From a virus (lineage: Duplodnaviria > Heunggongvirae > Uroviricota > Caudoviricetes): a DNA stretch of 18,343 nt. The notes beneath the pieces were generated by a model. The model saw only the letters and a program-made list of their open reading frames with translations. It did no database searches and was not told where the DNA came from. The translations under genes were made by a program, and so were the position numbers. Positions 4,532 to 18,343 of the stretch are shown piece by piece (position 1 is the stretch's first letter; each line of letters opens with the position of its first letter). The DNA is taken from the IMG/VR virus record IMGVR_UViG_2526164601_000033. One strand, written 5' to 3'.

Positions 4532-4589
4532 AAAAAGGGCGGCAGAGCAGTCACGGAGTAAAACTGATACCGCCAAACGTCACCAGAAA
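4532..4589 (-). ncRNA. dicF: DicF small regulatory RNA with its 3' terminator
   Basis: The reverse complement of 4532-4589 reads TTTCTGGTGACGTTTGGCGGTATCAGTTTTACTCCGTGACTGCTCTGCCGCCCTTTTT, which matches E. coli DicF as recalled, including the GGCGG/CCGCC terminator stem and U-run. It lies about 170 nt upstream of dicB on the same strand, as in Qin. Confidence 0.8.
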
Positions 4590-6211: not shown

Positions 6212-6289
6212 TGAGAAATCCTCTGCTTCCCCTTAACGCCGGGTAGCGGAACTGTTTGCTGAGAACACCGTGCGGTGTCTTGATGAGTA

Positions 6290-6345
6290 GAATTTAGAAT
6301 AGCCTAAGAGTTATGGTCAAGCTTTTTGTGTAGAAAAACCTAAGC
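6290..6345. promoter_or_regulatory. OL-like operator/promoter cluster downstream of the repressor gene
   Basis: TTAGAATAGCCTAA at 6294-6307 and, on the minus strand, TTAGGTTTTTCTAC (plus 6330-6343) share the TTAG-N6-CTAA/C pattern of the repressor-proximal operators; the second is one mismatch from the OR site TTAGGTTTCTCTAC. A leftward -35-like TTGACC (plus 6315-6320) sits between them. Confidence 0.4.
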
Positions 6346-6418
6346 TTCTTGATGTAAAAAACACAAGTATTTGAAAGTTTGTGCTTTTTATTACAGAGAG
6401 TTGCGAAAAAAAGGGGGG

Positions 6419-6826
6419 TTATTTATTTGCGCTTCTTTTGCGAGCTTTGAGTAGTTCTTCAAAAAGTTTGTTGAAATTCTCAACTCGAGCACGCATCTCT
6501 GACAACAGAGCCTTTTGCTCTGACTCAGGCAGTGCGTCGAACAGTTGAAGCAACTCTTTTTGATCTTCTGTCAGATTGACTGGCTGATTATCTGGGATCG
6601 GTTCGCCTGGTTGCTTATCTTCATCTCCAAAAAGAAGCCAAGTCGGCGAGCACTGAAGCGCCTGGCTCAGTGCGAATAATCTCTTCCCCGCTGGCTGTGT
6701 TTCATCTCTTTCCCATTGAGAAATTGTTACGTGAGCCACTTTGACCAGCTTACCTAATGCGGCCTGAGACAGTTTTAATTTTTTTCGCCTGTATAAGAGG
6801 CGAGCACCGAAGGTTTCGTTTTTCAT
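6419..6826 (-). CDS. dicA: DicA-like HTH (XRE/CI-type) prophage repressor
   Basis: 135-aa ORF. The HTH segment SQAALGKLVKVAHVTISQWE and the blocks QCSPTWLLFGDEDKQP, LFDALPESEQ and EMRARVENFNKLFEELLKAR match E. coli DicA as recalled. It is divergent from a Cro-like gene across an operator-bearing intergenic region. Confidence 0.85.
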   Translation of the reverse strand: MKNETFGARLLYRRKKLKLSQAALGKLVKVAHVTISQWERDETQPAGKRLFALSQALQCSPTWLLFGDEDKQPGEPIPDNQPVNLTEDQKELLQLFDALPESEQKALLSEMRARVENFNKLFEELLKARKRSANK

Positions 6827-6827
6827 A

Positions 6828-6892
6828 TTAGGTAATTCTAATTTTTCTTGACTTAGGTTTCTCTACGATCTAGTTTCCTTAGGAAAATCTAA
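6828..6892. promoter_or_regulatory. OR-like operator region: three TTAG-N6-CTAA/C inverted repeats between divergent repressor and cro-like genes
   Basis: Sites TTAGGTAATTCTAA (6828-6841), TTAGGTTTCTCTAC (6853-6866) and TTAGGAAAATCTAA (6879-6892), spaced about 25-26 bp centre to centre. Rightward -35-like TTGACT at 6848-6853. Leftward -10-like TAGAAT (plus 6835-6840) ends 8 nt before the repressor ATG, suggesting a leaderless or near-leaderless repressor mRNA. Confidence 0.5.
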
Positions 6893-6902
6893 GGGGTTCG
6901 AT

Positions 6903-7130
6903 ATGTTGAAAATTGATGCTATAGCGTTTTTTGGCAGCAAAACAAAGCTTGCCAATGTCGCAGGAGTTAGGCTGGCAAGCGTTGCTGCATGGGGGGAACT
7001 GGTTCCTGAAGGTCGCGCGATGCGCCTGCAAGAGGCATCCGGCGGGGAACTTCAGTACGACCCCAAAGTTTATGACGAATATCGTAAGGCAAAGCGGGCG
7101 GGGCGGTTGAACAATGAAAATCACCACTGA
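6903..7130 (+). CDS. dicC: Cro-like HTH regulator (DicC/YdaS family)
   Basis: 75-aa ORF with AAGGGG about 8 nt upstream. Divergent partner of the DicA-like gene; block GRAMRLQEASGGELQYDPKVYDEYRK resembles DicC as recalled (less certain than the DicA recall). Confidence 0.75.
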   Translation: MLKIDAIAFFGSKTKLANVAGVRLASVAAWGELVPEGRAMRLQEASGGELQYDPKVYDEYRKAKRAGRLNNENHH

Positions 7131-8677: not shown

Positions 8678-9131
8678 GCAGCAAATCCGGCAGGTCTGCC
8701 GCCAGTGCATGGACCGCTGCCGGGCGGGTGAAACATGGCCTCCGGACCTGGCTGAGTTTGTGGCACTGATTTCGAAAAGCGGAGCCAATCCATTCGGTCT
8801 GACGGTGGATGCTGTGATGGAGGAGTACCGCCGCTGGCGCAATGAGTCCTGGCGATACGACGGAAGTGATAAGTACCCGTGGTCTCAGCCTGTGCTGTAT
8901 CACATTTGCCTCGAGATGCGTTCAAAGGGGATTGAGCGCCAGATGACCGAAGGGGAATTAAAACGGCTTGCAGAACGGCAACTGACGAAATGGGCAAAGC
9001 ATGTTAGTAACGGCCTGAGCGTTCCGCCAGTCCGGCGACAACTGGCGGCCCCCAAACGCCCGTCGGGGCCAACGCCAATTGAGTTGCTGAAACAGGAATA
9101 TGAACGCCGGAAAGCGGCTGGTTTTGTTTGA
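8466..9131 (+). CDS. Lambda P-like replication protein (helicase loader); start uncertain
   Basis: The C-terminal half parallels lambda P as recalled (YPWS...MTEGELKRLAERQL versus YPWK...LTDAELRRKAADEL). The longest ORF overlaps the upstream gene by 212 bp. Alternative in-frame ATGs at 8592 and 8670; the latter forms an ATGACTGA start/stop overlap. Confidence 0.6.
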   Translation: MQQHQVAPHHGQFRKFGQHVSSGNVKTDLSATETAWKLWELMGVVYSNRWIQKNGAAPSKLWIAQIGAMTEQQIRQVCRQCMDRCRAGETWPPDLAEFVALISKSGANPFGLTVDAVMEEYRRWRNESWRYDGSDKYPWSQPVLYHICLEMRSKGIERQMTEGELKRLAERQLTKWAKHVSNGLSVPPVRRQLAAPKRPSGPTPIELLKQEYERRKAAGFV

Positions 9132-10758: not shown

Positions 10759-11517
10759 ATGAGGAACATAATGGCAGGTTTTTTAATATTCCTGTCTTCT
10801 GCTGCTTATGCTGATATCAATCTGTATGGTCCTGGTGGCCCGCATACAGCCTTGCTTGATGCAGCCAAACTTTATGCCGAAAAAACAGGTATTATAGTGA
10901 ACGTTCATTACGGCCCACAGAACAAATGGAATGAAGATGCCAAAAAAAATGCAGATATCTTGTTTGGCGCATCAGAACAATCTGCTCTGGCTATCATTCG
11001 GGACCATAAAGACAGCTTCAGTGAAAAAGATATTCAGCCTCTTTATCTGCGAAAAAGTATTTTACTGGTAAAGAAAGGTAATCCTAAAAATATCCGGAGT
11101 ATTGACGACCTGACCAGACCTGGGATTGGCGTAATTGTTAATGATGGTGGTGGTACCAGTAATACATCAGGCACTGGCGTCTGGGAAGATATTGCCGGAC
11201 GTAAAGGGAATATAGAAACTGTCGCCGCAATCCGAAAAAATATTATTTTATATGCGCCCAATAGCGGAACTGCACGTAAGGCTCTTGAGAATCAGCCTGG
11301 AGCAGATGTCTGGATAACCTGGGCTGACTGGGCAGCCAGTAATCCAGAAATTGGTGATGTCGTGGAAATAGCGCCAGACTACGTGATATGGCGTGATATG
11401 AACATTACAGTACGTCAGGATGCAAATGATGAAACCCGTCGATTTGCAGAATGGCTACAAACCGATGAAGCGGCGCCTGCATTCAAAAAATATGGCTGGA
11501 CCAGGAAAGGCACTTGA
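10759..11517 (+). CDS. Periplasmic solute-binding protein, ModA-like (molybdate/tungstate/sulfate-type PBP2 fold), with signal peptide
   Basis: 252-aa ORF with AAAGGAG SD. N-terminal signal-like MAGFLIFLSSAAYA. The blocks ADILFGASEQ, SILLVKKGNPKNI and C-terminal AEWLQTDEAAPAFKKYGW parallel E. coli ModA (ADLFISADQ, SLVVVAPKAS, YDYLKGPQAAEIFKRYGF) as recalled. The gene is AT-rich. Confidence 0.8.
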   Translation: MRNIMAGFLIFLSSAAYADINLYGPGGPHTALLDAAKLYAEKTGIIVNVHYGPQNKWNEDAKKNADILFGASEQSALAIIRDHKDSFSEKDIQPLYLRKSILLVKKGNPKNIRSIDDLTRPGIGVIVNDGGGTSNTSGTGVWEDIAGRKGNIETVAAIRKNIILYAPNSGTARKALENQPGADVWITWADWAASNPEIGDVVEIAPDYVIWRDMNITVRQDANDETRRFAEWLQTDEAAPAFKKYGWTRKGT

Positions 11518-11549: not shown

Positions 11550-11852
11550 CCGGATGCCGCGCCAGCGGCATGTAGGGGCAGCTCACAAAACGGAAAAAAT
11601 TGTACGCTAAGCCTCGCCAGGTGAACTGAATTCATTCCGATATGGGAATTCCCATATCGGGCGAAAACGGTTTGCTGTAACGGCAGAGTTAAGTAGGATT
11701 GCTGCGGGTGCTTGAGGCTATCTGCCTCGGGCATGAACACCAACGGCAGATAGATAAAAGCCCCACCCGACTATAAATCGAAGTGAGGCCCCTATATGCT
11801 CGTCACATATAGATTGCCTCTTACGGACCGAAAGGTCAAGGAGAAGCAGGCT

Positions 11853-12008
11853 ATGAAGCAGCAAAAGGCGATGTTAATCGCCCTGATCGTCATCTGTTTA
11901 ACCGTCATAGTGACGGCACTGGTAACGAGGAAAGACCTCTGCGAGGTACGAATCCGAACCGGCCAGACGGAGGTCGCTGTCTTCACAGCTTACGAACCTG
12001 AGGAGTAA
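11853..12008 (+). CDS. hokD: Hok/Gef-family membrane toxin (type I toxin-antitoxin toxin)
   Basis: 51-aa product MKQQKAMLIALIVICLTVIVTALVTRKDLCEVRIRTGQTEVAVFTAYEPEE matches HokD/RelF as recalled. AAGGAG SD. A long structured leader lies upstream, with palindromes at 11637-11660 and 11792-11812. Confidence 0.85.
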   Translation: MKQQKAMLIALIVICLTVIVTALVTRKDLCEVRIRTGQTEVAVFTAYEPEE

Positions 12009-12146: not shown

Positions 12147-12228
12147 CAAAAATACTTAAGTAGCGCGCAGGGAGAAGAGGGATGGACCCCGAACAGGGGA
12201 GTGCTATTTATCTGGAAGGATTCTGTTG

Positions 12229-12486
12229 ATGAGAATCGAAGAATTACGTGAAATTTTTAGTGAAGGTGGCCTCTATACTGTGCGCGTTGAGAAGGGCGCT
12301 ATTGTCAGCCACTGCCGTATTAAATGTTTACAGTCTCAACAAAGGAAGAGTGGAGCTGCGTTAATTCATTTTGTGGATGGGCTTGTGACGGATGGTTTTA
12401 TTTTGCGTGCAAATGAATTTGTCACATCGTTGCCGTCTCTGAAAGAAGCTGGGATTAAGGCTGGTTTTTCTGCTTTTGAAGATTAG
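12229..12486 (+). CDS. Rem-like hypothetical protein (positional equivalent of rem in Qin)
   Basis: 85 aa from the ATG at 12229 (the track start 12226 is TTG). Sits immediately downstream of hokD and upstream of a DUF968-like gene, matching the hokD-rem-ydfU order of Qin. Sequence identity to Rem not verified. Confidence 0.5.
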   Translation: MRIEELREIFSEGGLYTVRVEKGAIVSHCRIKCLQSQQRKSGAALIHFVDGLVTDGFILRANEFVTSLPSLKEAGIKAGFSAFED

Positions 12487-13891: not shown

Positions 13892-14257
13892 ATGACTGAA
13901 CGGATAGAATTTGTTTTGCCTTACCCGCCGACGGTGAATACCTACTGGCGACGTCATGGCAATACGTATTTCATCTCGGAAGCCGGAAAGCGTTATCGCC
14001 GTGATGTGGCGCTAATTGTTCGCCAGCAGCGGCTGAAATTAAACCTGTCCGGAAGGCTGGTGATAAAGATTATTGCAGAGCCACCGGATAAGCGCCGTCG
14101 TGACCTGGACAATATCCTGAAAGCACCACTGGATGTGCTGACGCATGCCGGACTTCTCATAGACGACGAGCAGTTTGATGAAATCAATATTGTGCGCGGT
14201 CAGCTCGTTCCTGGTGGGCGGCTGGGGATAAAAATCACAGAACTGGAGTGCGCATGA
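13892..14257 (+). CDS. rusA: RusA Holliday-junction resolvase
   Basis: 121-aa ORF. The blocks LPYPPTVNTYWRRHGN and DKRRRDLDNILKAPLDVLTHAGLLIDDEQ parallel E. coli RusA ([45 protein letters not shown]) as recalled. Confidence 0.9.
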   Translation: MTERIEFVLPYPPTVNTYWRRHGNTYFISEAGKRYRRDVALIVRQQRLKLNLSGRLVIKIIAEPPDKRRRDLDNILKAPLDVLTHAGLLIDDEQFDEINIVRGQLVPGGRLGIKITELECA

Positions 14258-14475
14258 ATAACCACTATTTACAGTTTGTGCGTGAGCAGCTCATTATCGC
14301 CACCGCTGATTTGAGTGGGGCAACAAAAGGTCAGCTTGAAGCCTGGCAGGAGAATGCCATGTTCGATACAGGGCGTTACAGGCGAAAAAAAATCCGGTAC
14401 CGCGATGAAGTGACTGGAAAAATGATAACGCGGGATAATCCACCAATCGTTATTATCCTGCGCCCGGCCCTTTAG
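14254..14475 (+). CDS. Hypothetical 73-aa protein; 3' end runs 10 nt into the first tRNA
   Basis: ATG at 14254 overlaps the rusA stop (ATGA), with GGAG 5 nt upstream. The stop codon TAG at 14473-14475 lies inside the tRNA. It occupies the position where a late antiterminator Q gene would be expected but is too short for one. Confidence 0.35.
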   Translation: MNNHYLQFVREQLIIATADLSGATKGQLEAWQENAMFDTGRYRRKKIRYRDEVTGKMITRDNPPIVIILRPAL

Positions 14476-14541
14476 CTCAGTGGTGAGAGCGAGCGACTCA
14501 TAATCGCCAGGTCGCTGGTTCAAATCCAGCAAGGGCCACCA
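14466..14541 (+). tRNA. tRNA-Ile2-like (anticodon CAU; Met cannot be excluded from sequence alone)
   Basis: Manual cloverleaf: acceptor GGCCCTT/AAGGGCC, D-arm GCTC-AGTGGTGA-GAGC, anticodon loop CTCATAA, T-arm GCTGG-TTCAAAT-CCAGC, encoded CCA. Resembles E. coli ileX-type tRNA as recalled. Confidence 0.8.
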
Positions 14542-14542
14542 A

Positions 14543-14618
14543 CCGCCACTAGCCATCAGGAAAGAGCGTCAACCCTTTAAGTTGAGTGTGCGAGGTTCGA
14601 GTCCCCGGTGGTGGTCCA
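14543..14618 (+). tRNA. tRNA-like sequence, degenerate (possible pseudo-tRNA); predicted anticodon loop CCTTTAA
   Basis: Acceptor CCGCCAC/GTGGTGG (one G-U pair) plus encoded CCA and a canonical GGTTCGAGTCC T-loop. The D-stem has only two Watson-Crick pairs (GCCA versus GAGC), the T-stem has an A-C mismatch, and position 33 is C rather than U. Confidence 0.4.
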
Positions 14619-14631
14619 TTATCGGTATTCT

Positions 14632-14705
14632 GCGTTGTTAGCTCAGCAGGACAGAGCAATTGCCTTCTAAGCAATCGGTCACTGGTTCGACTCCAGTACA
14701 ACGCG
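14632..14705 (+). tRNA. tRNA-Arg (anticodon UCU, reads rare AGA)
   Basis: Manual cloverleaf: acceptor GCGTTGT/ACAACGC, D-arm GCTC-AGCAGGAC-AGAGC, anticodon stem ATTGC/GCAAT with loop CTTCTAA, T-arm ACTGG-TTCGACT-CCAGT. CCA is not encoded. Confidence 0.8.
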
Positions 14706-14721
14706 CTACACTTATTTTCCC

Positions 14722-14746
14722 GGCTCGCTTTTGCGGGCCTTTTTTG
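14722..14746 (+). terminator. Rho-independent terminator after the tRNA cluster
   Basis: Stem GGCTCGC / GCGGGCC (one G-U pair) with TTTT loop, followed by TTTTTTG. Confidence 0.6.
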
Positions 14747-14788
14747 TATCTGCGCCACGCCCGGCGCATACCAACCACAGAGCCTTTC

Positions 14789-14798
14789 GGGGGGGGGG
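14789..14798. repeat. G10 homopolymer tract
   Basis: Ten consecutive G at 14789-14798, about 80 bp upstream of the TerB-like start codon. Confidence 0.9.
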
Positions 14799-14880
14799 AG
14801 CTTACGGAGTGGTCAGTGTGACTTTCTCTGTGGGCAGATCGCTCCCGGGCGTTGGCTCACCCACCCAAAGGAACGTCACG

Positions 14881-15313
14881 ATGTTTGGTATTTTTGGTAA
14901 AAAAAGCCCGCAGAGCGGCAACGGAAATTAAAAAGTTTGAAAAACGCGATCTGGCACAGGTGGTGATTAACGCCGCCTACCTGGTGGCCTGTGCAGATGG
15001 TGAATGTGAGGCTTCCTAGAAAGCGAAGATCGAACAGGTACTGCGTAATCAGCCTGCGCTGTACGCGTTTACGTCAGAAATTAATGCGATTAGCGCAACC
15101 ATTATCGGTCAGCTGGATACGAACTTTAAAACTGGTCGTCGTGCGGCGTTACGTGAGATCGAGGATGTGAAACACGATACGCGTGAAGCGGAAGATGTGC
15201 TGGATGTGGCGGTGGCCATTGCGGAGGCAGACGGCGAAATTGAGCCGGAAGAGCGCAAGGTGCTGGAAGAGATTGCCGGTGTTCTGGGTCTTCGTCTGGA
15301 GAATTACCTGTGA
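14881..15313 (+). pseudogene. TerB-like (tellurite-resistance TerB family) gene disrupted by a frameshift in an A7 tract and an in-frame TAG
   Basis: ATG at 14881 (AAGGAA SD) reads MFGIFGKKSPQSGNGN then stops at 14929-14931. The +1 frame from about 14906 continues ...FEKRDLAQVVINAAYLVACADGECEAS-TAG(15017-15019)-KAKIEQVL...AVAIAEADGEIEPEERKVLEEIAGVLGLRLENYL, ending at 15311-15313. The ADGE..EE motifs are TerB-like as recalled. The frame change maps to the A7 run at 14899-14905. Confidence 0.6.
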
Positions 15314-15477
15314 CGGTAAAACTGCGCCTGACTGTGGCTGCACTCCTGCTGTTTCTGGTGGTGATGGTGGATTTCACCAGCAGAATCATGTCGGTGCTGG
15401 CGGATGGGGTGCTGGTCTGCGGCATTATGGTATTGCTGTGGCCGGTGATAAAAAGAAACAGCCTGCATAATGCTTGA
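15310..15477 (+). CDS. Possible small membrane protein (55 aa, GTG start overlapping the TerB-like stop)
   Basis: The frame reads VTVKLRLTVAALLLFLVVMVDFTSRIMSVLADGVLVCGIMVLLWPVIKRNSLHNA with two hydrophobic segments. GTGA start/stop overlap and no clear SD, so weak. Confidence 0.3.
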   Translation: MTVKLRLTVAALLLFLVVMVDFTSRIMSVLADGVLVCGIMVLLWPVIKRNSLHNA

Positions 15478-15643
15478 TTTTTTGTTTGCTGTTTATTAAA
15501 AACACTTCTGCATGGTGAATCCCCCTGTGCGGAGGGGCGATCAGCAACCAGGTATATGGGATAATCGCGGATTCAGGTGCTGATACTGAATTCACCGGGA
15601 GGCACCCGGCACCATGCAAGAAAAAGAATGTGCATGCAAACAT

Positions 15644-15667
15644 GCCCCTCTCCGGAGGGGCTTTTTT
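15644..15667 (+). terminator. Rho-independent terminator in the intergenic region upstream of the esterase gene
   Basis: Stem GCCCCTC / GAGGGGC with TCCG loop, followed by TTTTTT. Confidence 0.55.
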
Positions 15668-15794
15668 ATGGGTAAAAAATGCCCGAATGGGTTCGGGCAA
15701 CAGCATGAGATACTGATATTGTTGTGTTGTTATCGTGTGGATTTTAACCAGGGTTTATCAGGCTGCGCAACTGCGTGGCCTTTTTTCATTTCTT

Positions 15795-15839
15795 GGGCTG
15801 TAGTCCCCGTGTGTCATTCAGGCTTCCGGACTACAGCCC
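15795..15839. repeat. 12-bp perfect inverted repeat (GGGCTGTAGTCC ... GGACTACAGCCC) with 21-nt spacer
   Basis: Arms at 15795-15806 and 15828-15839, about 45 bp upstream of the esterase ATG. Confidence 0.6.
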
Positions 15840-15882
15840 ACTCCATATCTGATTTAATACACTATCCCGGCCGGGAGGAATA

Positions 15883-16824
15883 ATGACATTTAAACATTAT
15901 GATGTTGTCAGGGCGGCGTCGCCGTCAGATCTTGCGGAAAAGCTGACACATAAACTGAAAGAGGGCTGGCAGCCGTTTGGTAGTCCGGTGGCCATAACCC
16001 CTTATACTCTGATGCAGGCGATTACAGCAGAAGGTGATGTGGTGGTCAGTGGTGCAACTGAGCCGGATTGGTACTACGTCATCGTACTGGCCGGGCAGTC
16101 CAATGCCATGGCTTACGGTGAAGGGCTTCCGCTGCCGGATTCATACGATGCTCCGGATCCGCGCATTAAACAGCTGGCGCGCCGCAGTACAGTGACGCCG
16201 GGTGGGGCTGCCTGCAGATATAACGATATTATTCCGGCCGACCACTGCCTGCATGATGTGCAGGATATGAGTACGCTGAATCATCCGAAGGCAGACCTGA
16301 GCAAAGGGCAGTACGGCTGTGTCGGCCAGGGGTTACATATTGCCAAAAAACTGCTCCCGTATATCCCGAATAACGCGGGGATCCTGCTGGTACCATGCTG
16401 TCGTGGTGGTTCGGCATTTACCCAGGGCGCGGAGGGGACATTCAGTGCGGACACGGGGGCCAGCCAGGATTCGGCGCGCTGGGGTGTGGGTAAACCGTTA
16501 TATCAGGACCTGATTGCGCGCACCAAAGCTGCATTACAGAAGAACCCGAAAAATGTGTTGCTGGCGGTGTGCTGGATGCAGGGAGAGTTTGACATGAGCG
16601 CCGCCACCCACGCACAGCAACCTGCGCTGTTTACAGCCATGCTGACACAGTTTCGTGCTGACCTCTCCGTGTTTAACGCGCAGTGCCATGGTGGCAGTGC
16701 TGCAGATGTGCCGTGGATTTGTGGTGACACGACGTATTACTGGAAAAATACCTACGGCACCCAGTACACCGGGAAAGCAATCGCTGGCGAAGGTGACGTC
16801 AATTCCTCTGGTCAGTCCGGTTGA
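15883..16824 (+). CDS. Sialate O-acetylesterase-like protein (NanS-p-like: N-terminal DUF1737-like segment plus SGNH/SASA esterase domain), apparently truncated
   Basis: 313-aa ORF with GGGAGG SD. Motif LAGQSNAMAYGE (the GQSN block of SGNH/SASA esterases) and WMQGEFD (WxQGESD-like). Synteny with prophage nanS-p paralogues downstream of the tRNA cluster in lambdoid/Stx phages; those are usually much longer. Confidence 0.75.
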   Translation: MTFKHYDVVRAASPSDLAEKLTHKLKEGWQPFGSPVAITPYTLMQAITAEGDVVVSGATEPDWYYVIVLAGQSNAMAYGEGLPLPDSYDAPDPRIKQLARRSTVTPGGAACRYNDIIPADHCLHDVQDMSTLNHPKADLSKGQYGCVGQGLHIAKKLLPYIPNNAGILLVPCCRGGSAFTQGAEGTFSADTGASQDSARWGVGKPLYQDLIARTKAALQKNPKNVLLAVCWMQGEFDMSAATHAQQPALFTAMLTQFRADLSVFNAQCHGGSAADVPWICGDTTYYWKNTYGTQYTGKAIAGEGDVNSSGQSG

Positions 16825-17500: not shown

Positions 17501-18343
17501 ATGACAGACGGTAACGGCGTCAATACCGCCACTAACGCGCCGGCAGAAGATCCGGATATTCCGGCATCAGGATATTACGGTGCGGCATCGAGAACGAATG
17601 GAAACCAGGTATCATCAAACCGCCCGACACATTTCAGTTCATGGGCGCGCAGGAGCATTATTCCGGATCGTCTGGCAACCGCTATTCTGAACGCAGCCGG
17701 GCGCACCTCAGCCTTCATCAGTGGTAAGGCACCGGAAATCAAACCCTCGCCCGGCGGCAACACGCCATCGGGTCCGTCTGCAGATACGTCCGTTCGCACA
17801 ATCTCCCTGCTGCCGGCAGCCGGAGAGGCTGCTGCGCAGGGCTGGAGCATTAAGGATGGCGGAATTCAGTTGTCGGGTGGTGTATTTAAGATCACCAAGC
17901 AGAGCAATAAAACCTGGTCCCTGACGCATCCGGTGGATGACGCAATTACCCTGCTGACACAGGGCGGCAGACTGACCTGTAAGTTCCGCCTGTCAGGCGC
18001 ACTGACCAACAATCAGTTCGGGCTGGGGATTTATCTGTATACGGATGCTCCCGTTCCTGATGGTGTGGCGATGACGGGTACCGGTAATCCGTTCCTGATG
18101 TCGTACTTCACTCAGACCACTGACGGCAGAGTGAATCTGATGCATCACAGGAAAGCCGGAAACACGAAGCTGGGGGAGTTCGGCGATTACGGTAACGACT
18201 GGCAGACGCTGGAGCTGGTGTTCACCGCCGGCAGTGCCACGGTTACTCCGAAACTGAATGGAGTGGCTGGCCCGGCATTCCAGGTTATAAAAGACAGTCT
18301 GACACTGGGACTGAATGCGCTGACGCTGACGGATGTTACAAAA
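17501..18343 (+). CDS. Hypothetical protein, 3'-truncated by the window end (beta-rich, Gly/Thr-rich)
   Basis: Manual translation from the ATG at 17501 runs 281 codons to the window end without a stop. It is absent from the ORF track, presumably because no stop falls inside the window. An in-frame GTG at 17492 is an alternative start. No family recognised. Confidence 0.5.
   Translation, partial: MTDGNGVNTATNAPAEDPDIPASGYYGAASRTNGNQVSSNRPTHFSSWARRSIIPDRLATAILNAAGRTSAFISGKAPEIKPSPGGNTPSGPSADTSVRTISLLPAAGEAAAQGWSIKDGGIQLSGGVFKITKQSNKTWSLTHPVDDAITLLTQGGRLTCKFRLSGALTNNQFGLGIYLYTDAPVPDGVAMTGTGNPFLMSYFTQTTDGRVNLMHHRKAGNTKLGEFGDYGNDWQTLELVFTAGSATVTPKLNGVAGPAFQVIKDSLTLGLNALTLTDVTK

Follow-up and report, generated by a model that had tools for sequence, protein, structure and literature searches.

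The region around the divergent dicA and dicC genes is very probably the repressor/anti-repressor immunity switch of PPompW, a Qin-type lambdoid prophage of Shiga-toxigenic and enteropathogenic E. coli. The window (the whole stretch of 18,343 nucleotides that was analysed) is the STEC prophage PPompW itself, a Qin relative with DicF, dicB and a Rem homologue. Qin-type features found are a DicA-family repressor, a divergent DicC, three repeats in the spacer between them, a PL promoter ahead of dicF-dicB, and a Rem homologue (Table 1); dicB and ydfC are annotated at the identical O157:H7 locus. Rem is an antirepressor that lifts DicA repression in K-12 (PMC10448788).

The pairing of a DicA-like repressor with a divergent Cro-like neighbour, read from the open reading frames in the preliminary description, is borne out by NCBIfam and Pfam families and by identity to the K-12 proteins (63% for the repressor, 83% for DicC). 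The N-terminal 68 aa of the repressor match the DNA-binding domain of P22 C2 (chains 1adr, 2r1j, 3jxb; residues 2–69; E=1e-21), and its nearest relatives in structure and sequence are P22 C2 and 434 Cro; Pfam Phage_CI_repr scores 21.3 bits, just under the 22-bit cutoff. No S24/LexA-like C-terminal autocleavage domain was found in its 135 aa, for which Pfam reports HTH families only. The switch probably shares an ancestor with the immC region of P22.

In a search of 5,426 complete genomes, about 750 were found to carry most of the region. DicA-type copies occupy up to 4 places per genome in carrier genomes.

Table 1 Features of the immunity region and associated genes. Positions are those of the window; strand is left empty for binding sites; the motif is TTAG-N6-CTAA.
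Feature	Position	Strand	Basis
DicF sRNA gene, in the PL operon, followed by dicB	4537..4588	-	Rfam RF00039, 76.7 bits
Conserved leader of the PL transcript: hairpin (6279..6264), pseudoknot-like element (6252..6229)	6229..6279	-	Covariation
PL/dicBp-type promoter: -35 TTGACC (6320..6315), 18-bp spacer, -10 TAAATT (6296..6291)	6291..6320	-	Scan, 9/12
OL1-type operator, over PL spacer and -10	6294..6307		Exact motif (TTAGAATAGCCTAA); register of P22 OL1 and of K-12 TTAGTCATGGCTAA
OL2-type operator, its core 9 bp upstream of the PL -35 hexamer	6330..6343		One mismatch (GTAGAAAAACCTAA); register of P22 OL2
A/U-rich terminator-like hairpin, between repressor stop codon and PL (presumed function)	6355..6390	-	RNA fold, -12.5 kcal/mol, z=-3.0
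DicA-family repressor, 135 aa	6419..6826	-	NCBIfam NF007257 DicA, 241.6 bits (cutoff 101), full length 1–135
Predicted start of repressor mRNA	6826..6828	-	A6828 would give a 2-nt leader, 6826 a strictly leaderless message
Oa-equivalent (P22 OR3 position), holding the repressor -10 and adjoining ATG	6828..6841		Exact motif (TTAGGTAATTCTAA)
-10 TAGAAT of repressor maintenance promoter (PRM/dicAp type), without recognisable -35	6835..6840	-	TAGnAT kept in 15/15 non-redundant relatives
PR/dicCp-type promoter: -35 TTGACT (6848–6853), 17-bp spacer, -10 TAGTTT (6871–6876)	6848..6876	+	K-12 alignment
Om-equivalent (P22 OR2 position), between PR -35 and -10, putative DicA site	6853..6866		One mismatch (TTAGGTTTCTCTAC)
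Oc-equivalent operator (P22 OR1 position), CCTTAG-GAAAAT-CTAAGG, core 6879–6892	6877..6894		Exact motif (core TTAGGAAAATCTAA), 6-bp perfect arms, homology to K-12 Oc
DicC (P22 Cro-like) gene	6903..7130	+	NCBIfam NF007282 DicC, 167.6 bits (cutoff 130); Pfam P22_Cro, E=3e-13
Rem homologue	12226..12486	+	71% identity to K-12 Rem

Sites and promoters on either side of the repressor gene

The consensus promoter scan (threshold 9/12) found only PL and one intragenic match, and missed both PR (8/12 by manual count) and the repressor promoter; these two are therefore placed by alignment with K-12 and P22, where the starts are mapped. The counterpart of PR in the K-12 alignment is the dicC promoter (TTGACT-17-TATCTT), for which 5'RACE has located the start; in the window, the predicted start of PR is G6883, and a Shine-Dalgarno sequence AAGGGG follows at 6891–6896. 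The predicted start of PL is A6284, and its layout, TTGACC...TAAATT...CATCA, is that of P22 PL, where the RNA start is annotated. The hairpin at 6355..6390 has a 12-bp stem followed by U residues.

Loci were compared in 40 distinct relatives (Escherichia, Citrobacter, Enterobacter, Pantoea, Erwinia, Buttiauxella, Yersinia, and viral contigs), many of them closely related and hence not independent. The three intergenic sites lie at -65 to -67, -40 or -41, and -15 or -16 from the repressor ATG; the downstream pair lies 35–36 bp apart; exact copies of the motif were not found in the flanks of these 40 loci. The Oc-equivalent covers the predicted dicC transcription start. The deviation of the Om-equivalent (GTAG..CTAA) is kept at its offset in most relatives, as is that of the OL2-type site (TTAG..CTAC); the Oa-equivalent holds its offset in all relatives, and is in register with P22 OR3, ATTTAAGATGACTTAACT-ATG. 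The helix-2 class of the repressor covaries with the base 5' of TTAG: in half-sites of the class found here this base is C in 56% and G in 1%, whereas in half-sites of the K-12-like classes it is G in 70–75% and C in 0%. There is thus evidence that the DicA family comprises two or more operator specificities.

Functional data come from related loci. K-12 Oc (TTGTTAGTCATAACTAACAA, which contains TTAG-N6-CTAA) is bound by DicA in vivo, a CTAA-to-CTCA change abolishing binding; DicA at Oc represses dicC and activates dicA; in the in vivo assay, DicA by itself did not bind isolated K-12 Om or Oa (PMC3441716). TTAG-N6-CTAA is therefore insufficient for binding, and not all five sites are established repressor sites. 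A K-12 DicA site at dicB carries a low-evidence rating, its location being given as unknown (PMC7567609). The primers of PMC6915034 match the exact allele of the window; in that study overexpression of DicA lowers dicB, and overexpression of DicC lowers dicA and raises dicB. In P22, OR1–3 and OL1–3 are annotated C2 binding sites, and the P22 sequence was compared directly with the window; the window showed no third OL site of the kind present in P22 and also reported for K-12.

With a probability that is appreciable and still well short of even, only the Oc-type site (6879–6892) and OL1 (6294–6307) are true DicA operators, the other three copies reflecting promoter overlap or DicC sites. The K-12 binding results at Oc, Om and Oa agree with this, as does the repression of dicA by DicC in this very allele (PMC6915034); moreover, the TAGAAT -10 lies inside the 6828 site, which adjoins the ATG, the 6853 site touches TTGACT with its right half, and conservation of both sites could in part stem from their overlap with the repressor -10 and the PR -35. 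However, the CTAA half at 6828 and the GTAG half at 6853 are conserved though required by no promoter hexamer; OL2 overlaps no promoter hexamer, but has retained both its place and its particular one-base defect; the equivalent P22 positions are annotated as C2 operators; and the K-12 assay used isolated sites and would miss cooperative binding.

A bolder extension is doubtful, namely that the GTAG-for-TTAG defect shared by the middle OR site and OL2 marks deliberately weak sites, filled cooperatively, with a possible OR-OL loop across the 408-bp repressor gene. If true, cooperative contacts would be made by the short C-terminal domain of DicA, a domain unlike that of the lambda or the P22 repressor; taken with the C-versus-G flank difference, the region would then be a compact, cleavage-independent, lambda-style long-range switch, and there would be several immunity types, with possible cross-talk, among the DicA-type prophages of one EHEC genome.

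Promoter and start of the repressor message

On the minus strand the start of the repressor gene reads TTAGAATTACCTAA-T-ATG, with TAGAAT at 6840..6835, then 8 nt (6834..6827), and ATG at 6826..6824. The counterparts of this -10 are TAGCAT in K-12 and TAAGAT in P22. No GGAG- or GAGG-like Shine-Dalgarno sequence was found in the 20 nt before the ATG. The preliminary description had reported a -10-like TAGAAT ending 8 nt before the ATG and the lack of a Shine-Dalgarno sequence, and both observations stand, the first by its coordinates, the second for the preceding 20 nt. It had also proposed a probably leaderless repressor message, which is supported, mostly by homology, and has to be amended to a leader of probably 2 nt. 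In K-12, the dicA mRNA has a 3-nt leader, its start lying 7 nt downstream of TAGCAT (PMC4681348 Table S3, differential RNA-seq), and this leader was confirmed by RLM-RT-PCR (PMC4681348 Fig. S1C); the annotation of P22 puts the 5' nucleotide of the PRM transcript 4 nt upstream of the c2 ATG. Carried over to the window, the K-12 geometry predicts a start at 6828 and hence a leader of 2 nt. The distance here from TAGAAT to the A of the ATG, 9 nt, is long, which makes a 5' end exactly at the AUG less likely than this 2-nt leader. Lambda cI is described as having a leaderless mRNA (PMC4681348, PMC8630535), and the mRNA of PaaR2 was found leaderless by 5'RACE and N-terminal sequencing (Jurenas et al. 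2021).

It is very unlikely that the repressor is made mainly from a distant PRE-like promoter in or beyond dicC, as a long-leader mRNA, with TAGAAT non-functional as a -10. Establishment promoters exist in lambda and P22 (P22 PRE is annotated), and the promoter assigned here to the repressor is without a -35 and was unflagged by the scan; nevertheless, every relative retains TAGnAT at a conserved distance from the ATG, the K-12 start lies 7 nt past the homologous TAGCAT and 3 nt ahead of the ATG, a Shine-Dalgarno sequence such as would serve a leadered mRNA is missing, and no cII/C1-type activator was found, the gene after dicC being YdaT-like by Pfam.

Motif counts, related switches and proposed working

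The preliminary description placed operator-like repeats on both sides of the repressor gene, three in the dicA-dicC spacer and two downstream, with even spacing of the first three and a single mismatch between a downstream site and an OR site. All of this was confirmed. From one intergenic site to the next, the starts are 25 and 26 bp apart, and 6330–6343 read on the opposite strand (TTAGGTTTTTCTAC) is a single base away from 6853–6866. The motif search that it suggested outside the locus, run on the 18-kb window, gave no further match at up to one mismatch beyond the five. Exact matches number 3 against 0.14 expected in the window, and three or more were reached in 0 of 200 shuffles; matches with up to one mismatch number 5 against 4.67 expected over the whole window, which is unremarkable as a count, and all five lie within 6294–6892. 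Local shuffles, confined to the two AT-rich intergenic stretches (33–41% GC), put P at about 1e-4 or below in the dicA-dicC spacer (76 bp) and at about 0.01 in the downstream one (207 bp). That the copies are chance palindromes of AT-rich intergenic DNA, which the base composition and the total at up to one mismatch might suggest, is refuted by the comparative data (offsets fixed across genera, no exact copies in the flanks, a homologous K-12 site validated functionally) as well as by the excess of exact copies and the local shuffles, and retains hardly any probability.

The likeness to the lambda OR/OL layout that had been noted is upheld by alignment with K-12 Qin and P22, but in logic only: on the comparisons that follow, P22 and Qin are closer models than lambda. 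K-12 Qin, a cryptic prophage, has the same gene order (dicB, DicF, ydfC, PL, dicA, divergent dicC) in a region that aligns base for base; a repressor of 135 aa; Oc, Om and Oa at matching offsets; a TTGACC PL with flanking sites; the -10 inside Oa beside the ATG; a Rem homologue; and an almost identical PL leader. Its DicA shares only 63% identity with the repressor here. It also differs in operator centres and flanks (half-site CTTAGR here, GTTAGY in K-12), and the two are therefore probably of different immunity types. Om is a good near-palindrome here and degenerate in K-12; the window has 1 nt less between Oa and ATG; the first PL gene is a 99–118 aa ORF here and ydfA in K-12; the prophage of the window keeps integrase, replication and late genes. 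For the K-12 dicA-dicC-dicBp region, see Bejar et al. (1986, 1988), Yun et al. (2012) and Ragunathan & Vanderpool (2023).

Salmonella phage P22 immC shares a homologous N-terminal DNA-binding domain and a P22-type Cro; 18-bp operators (OR1–3, OL1–2) in register, with common T-T-A positions (TTAAG in P22, TTAGR here); an OR3-equivalent that adjoins the repressor ATG and contains the PRM -10; and the PL elements, OL1 covering spacer and -10 and the 18-bp OL2 of P22 ending 7 bp upstream of -35. It differs in its repressor (216 aa in P22; 135 aa without a LexA-like cleavage domain here), in its third OL site, not found in the window, in its N protein, which has no counterpart here, and in its boxA/boxB nut site, missing from the PL leader of the window. 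Induction here is presumably via an antirepressor, unlike in P22. With lambda cI/cro the region shares the logic of a divergent repressor/cro pair, three operators about 25 bp apart, a second set at PL, a weak, activator-dependent maintenance promoter, and an mRNA without Shine-Dalgarno sequence; its operator sequence is unrelated (the 17-bp lambda consensus does not fit), similarity of the repressors is weak at best, and a cleavable C-terminal domain is missing here. In CP-933P, a cryptic prophage of O157:H7, the regulator of the PaaR2/YdaS switch sits at the genomic position of cI and dicA and has a divergent YdaS/Cro-like partner, but its sequence similarity to DicA is described as low and it is coupled to a toxin-antitoxin pair (Jurenas et al. 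2021).

From these systems, we infer the following working. The DicA-type repressor would most likely bind as a dimer to 18-bp sites with core TTAG-N6-CTAA and half-site CTTAGR. At the Oc-type site (6877–6894) it would cover the start of the dicC promoter and turn the rightward early genes off, and, as has been demonstrated for K-12 DicA, it would stimulate the weak, -35-less promoter of its own gene; at OL1 and OL2 it would block the PL/dicBp-type promoter of ydfC, DicF and dicB. The sites at 6853 and 6330, with the same conserved one-base defect, are probably weaker and cooperative. For the site at 6828, which overlaps the repressor -10 and start, the probable role is DicC-mediated repression of dicA, negative autoregulation, or a combination of the two. 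The repressor mRNA would start 0–2 nt before the AUG and be translated without a Shine-Dalgarno sequence. Derepression would be expected by the Rem antirepressor or by a bistable DicA/DicC flip, not by RecA cleavage.

For K-12 Qin, published work already covers the Oc operator, the arrangement of the region and a near-leaderless message for dicA, and the sites share their register with P22; conceptually, nothing here is new. The additions are modest: five site positions mapped across genera, the evidence on operator specificity in the DicA family, and a PL-leader RNA undescribed so far. The region governs DicF and DicB, inhibitors of host cell division, in widespread pathogenic E. coli, and its operator set and probable immunity type help in predicting cross-regulation between co-resident prophages.

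RNA in the PL leader

The PL leader holds a covarying pseudoknot-like RNA (6229–6252), in which 95.4% of cells are paired and 5 of 8 pairs change on both sides, values reached by 0 of 500 shuffles. Every relative is predicted to form the first leader hairpin, but in a register that varies from group to group, and no covariation is therefore claimed for this hairpin. No Rfam match to the leader was found, either at gathering scores or at E up to 10. Two candidates were rejected: a nut site, since there is no boxA/boxB and the first PL ORF is without an N-like arginine-rich motif; and an HK022 put RNA, since blastn-short against putL/putR gave chance words of 7–10 nt only, the PL leader of HK022, on direct reading, bears no resemblance to the one here, and the covariance model of the leader element finds nothing in HK022. 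Weaker copies of the leader motif, not significant, lie at 17981–18012 (E=0.15) and 9015–9056 (E=6.5).

An allele of the Qin immunity switch

The switch in the window is real and adds one more allele to the well-described Qin dicA/dicC system, which has P22 immC ancestry; the sequence statements of the preliminary description were correct without exception. The repressor ORF (135 aa, 6419-6826, minus strand) scores 241.6 bits with the NCBIfam DicA model (cutoff 101), the divergent ORF (75 aa, 6903-7130) 167.6 bits with the DicC model (cutoff 130); identity to the K-12 proteins is 63% for DicA and 83% for DicC. Many O157:H7, O55:H7, O145, O103, and O26 chromosomes contain the 941-bp region with 100% identity, and most of it is carried by about 750 of 5,426 complete E. 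coli genomes; the element is named PPompW in GenBank phage records, where dicA and dicC are already annotated.

The 18,343-bp window holds three exact copies of TTAG-N6-CTAA (0.14 expected), a count reached in 0 of 200 shuffles of the whole window. That the motif copies arose by chance is unlikely: a total of five sites at one mismatch or fewer is unremarkable for the whole window, yet all five are confined to 6294-6892, and with shuffling confined to the two AT-rich spacers, P was at most about 1e-4 in the 76-bp divergent one and about 0.01 in the 207-bp downstream one. The three intergenic sites, described as evenly spaced, start 25 and 26 bp apart; both related sites downstream of the repressor gene were recovered, and 6330-6343, read as its reverse complement, matches 6853-6866 at all but one base, as had been claimed for a downstream and an OR site.

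Features located in the window (PL, promoter downstream of the repressor gene)
Feature	Position	Strand	Basis or remark
Exact TTAG-N6-CTAA (OL1)	6294-6307		motif search
One-mismatch site GTAG..CTAA (OL2)	6330-6343		motif search, one mismatch allowed
Exact TTAG-N6-CTAA (Oa equivalent)	6828-6841		motif search
One-mismatch site TTAG..CTAC (Om equivalent)	6853-6866		motif search, one mismatch allowed
Exact TTAG-N6-CTAA (Oc equivalent)	6879-6892		motif search
DicF	4537-4588	-	Rfam, 76.7 bits
Upstream hairpin of PL leader	6264-6279	-	
Paa gene (AcfC-family adhesin, virulence cargo)	10759-11517	+	annotation of identical O157:H7 locus and PPompW records
sok antitoxin RNA	11706-11855	+	Rfam; prophage right arm
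rem homologue ORF	12226-12486	+	71% identity to Rem; between hok/sok and ydfU-like gene
tRNA genes (two)	14466-14538 and 14632-14705	+	Rfam; prophage right arm
STnc100 sRNA	15481-15673	+	Rfam; prophage right arm
AgvB, anti-GcvB sRNA	15674-15735	-	Rfam; prophage right arm

This layout recurs in the dicC-dicA-ydfA region of K-12: Oc (TTAGTTATGACTAA) adjoins dicC, the degenerate middle site Om follows, and Oa (TTAGCATTAGCTAA) lies 2 nt ahead of the dicA ATG; downstream of dicA, a TTGACC -35 is found with TTAGTCATGGCTAA covering spacer and -10. This locus has been likened to the immunity regions of lambdoid phages; dicCp has three operators, and dicBp has operators as well (Bejar 1988, cited in PMC10448788). 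The lambda-like OR/OL layout proposed earlier stands as to operator-like sites at both ends; half-site positions and register are common with P22, which is therefore the closer model. Repressor residues 2-69 match the DNA-binding domain of P22 C2 (E=1e-21); unlike C2, the window repressor is without a cleavage domain. The annotated P22 operators are in the same register as the window sites: OR3 (ATTTAAGATGACTTAACT) abuts the c2 ATG and holds the PRM -10; OR2 extends at its end into the PR -35, TTGACT; OL1 covers spacer and -10 of PL (TTGACC...TAAATT...CATCA); OL2 (18 bp) ends 7 bp upstream of the PL -35. Half-sites TTAGR (window) and TTAAG (P22) occupy the same positions. boxA and boxB are absent from the window PL leader.

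Conservation and occupancy of the operators

A set of eleven loci in other species plus 80 viral contigs, including Pantoea, Enterobacter, Erwinia, E. ruysiae, E. albertii, Buttiauxella, Citrobacter, and Yersinia, gave 40 distinct intergenic regions. Relative to the repressor ATG, the motifs in these regions are placed at -65 to -67, -40 or -41, and -15 or -16; a distance of 35-36 bp separates the downstream pair, which brackets the PL -35, and the flanks hold no further exact copies. Most members share a one-base defect, GTAG, in the middle OR site and OL2. The most conserved columns among 15 non-redundant sequences are TTAG, CTAA, the TAGnAT -10, and the TTGACT -35, with no conservation upstream in the cro 5' region.

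K-12 DicA binds Oc (TTGTTAGTCATAACTAACAA) in vivo, repressing dicC and activating dicA, and a single CTAA-to-CTCA change abolishes binding (PMC3441716). DicA dimers at the window Oc (6877-6894, CCTTAG-N6-CTAAGG) would occlude the predicted dicC start G6883, assigned to a promoter TTGACT-17-TAGTTT (6848-6876), and, by analogy with K-12, would also activate the repressor promoter, which has no -35. DicA at OL1 and OL2 would block PL (TTGACC 6320..6315, TAAATT 6296..6291, start about 6284), so that DicF and dicB stay silent. Low affinity and cooperative binding are likely for the two defective sites (6853 and 6330); the 6828 site overlaps the repressor -10 and start and probably serves DicC repression, autorepression, or both. 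Binding, site occupancy, and transcription starts in the window are inferred throughout. In overexpression experiments DicA lowered dicB, and DicC lowered dicA and raised dicB (Pan et al. 2019, PMC6915034); the primers of that study match the window's allele.

The main alternative is that DicA occupies Oc and OL1 only, the other sites being conserved for promoter reasons or for DicC binding. It is supported by K-12, where isolated Om or Oa did not bind DicA (PMC3441716). Arguments against it are that half-sites are kept where no promoter hexamer requires them, that OL2 is conserved although it falls in no hexamer, and that P22 has its operators in these positions.

In the window's repressor class, the position immediately 5' of TTAG is 56% C and 1% G, and in K-12-like classes it is 70-75% G and 0% C (loci not phylogenetically independent). 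By helix-2 class (window half-sites 6294-6343 and 6828-6892, with compared loci L003-L093), SQAALGKLV (window) goes with C, TQREA and TQRSL (K-12 DicA) with G; on the 3' side of TTAG, the window has a purine where the K-12 class has C or T. Together, these class-linked bases suggest several immunity specificities within the DicA family, as judged from sequences of non-independent loci.

Start of the repressor message

The minus strand upstream of the repressor reads TTAGAATTACCTAA-T-ATG, so that TAGAAT ends 8 nt before the ATG (6826), with no Shine-Dalgarno-like sequence before it in the window, both as described. K-12 dicA starts 3 nt before its ATG (Romero et al., PMC4681348, Table S3; RLM-RT-PCR analysis in Fig. 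S1C), 7 nt after TAGCAT. With this geometry (TAGAAT, 6 nt, start), the window message is predicted to begin with A6828 and to have a 2-nt leader; initiation at the first base of the ATG would be 9 nt from the -10 and is the less likely possibility. In P22, the annotated PRM start lies 4 nt ahead of the c2 ATG, and the mRNA of PaaR2 (prophage CP-933P, same position as the repressor) is leaderless by 5'RACE. From these starts and the window geometry, "probably leaderless" holds in a loose sense (0-3 nt, no SD), a strictly leaderless start being less likely than the 2-nt leader; a long-leader transcript is unlikely.

The PL leader and the surrounding prophage

Conservation across genera covers about the first 60 nt of the PL transcript and persists where the first gene is a different one. 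At 6252..6229 (minus strand; GUUC[CGCU]A(CCC)[GGCG]UUAA(GGG)), two interleaved stems can form after an invariant GUUC. Among 23 distinct sequences in an unfitted MAFFT alignment, 95.4% of cells were paired over both stems and five of eight pairs changed on both sides, values reached in 0 of 500 shuffles; slid controls paired at only 30-47%, and the fold is possible in 25 of 28 unique leaders versus 7% of shuffled segments. The pattern points to a conserved pseudoknot-like RNA; it might act in cis as an antiterminator that carries transcription past the DicF terminator, control translation of the first PL gene, or affect RNA stability. Rfam gave no match, and comparison with P22 nutL and HK022 putL revealed no likeness. 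A covariance model found no significant second copy in the window; non-significant look-alikes (GUUCCGCC..GGCG plus a short second stem) lie on the strand of rightward transcription at 17981-18012 (+, E=0.15) and 9015-9056 (+, E=6.5). An A/U-rich hairpin with an A-tract on one side and a U-tract on the other (6355-6390, minus strand; -12.5 kcal/mol, z=-3.0) separates the repressor stop codon from PL and may end the dicA transcript ahead of PL.

The gene content around the switch is that of a Qin-like lambdoid prophage, with integrase, excisionase, exonuclease, dicB, DicF, and ydfC on its left and, on its right, a YdaT-like gene, genes for replication, paa, hok/sok, and a rem homologue. Rem is the Qin antirepressor and relieves DicA repression in K-12; induction would be expected via Rem or a bistable flip, not RecA. 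The paa gene sits in the early-right region, between replication genes and hok/sok. The right arms of the window (about 14250-15900) and of the deposited record PPompW_132418 (L097; 14503-17170) differ, with a Q antiterminator gene, three tRNAs, and ISEc20 in the latter and two tRNAs with the STnc100 and AgvB sRNAs in the window; PPompW-type prophages are thus mosaic right of rusA.
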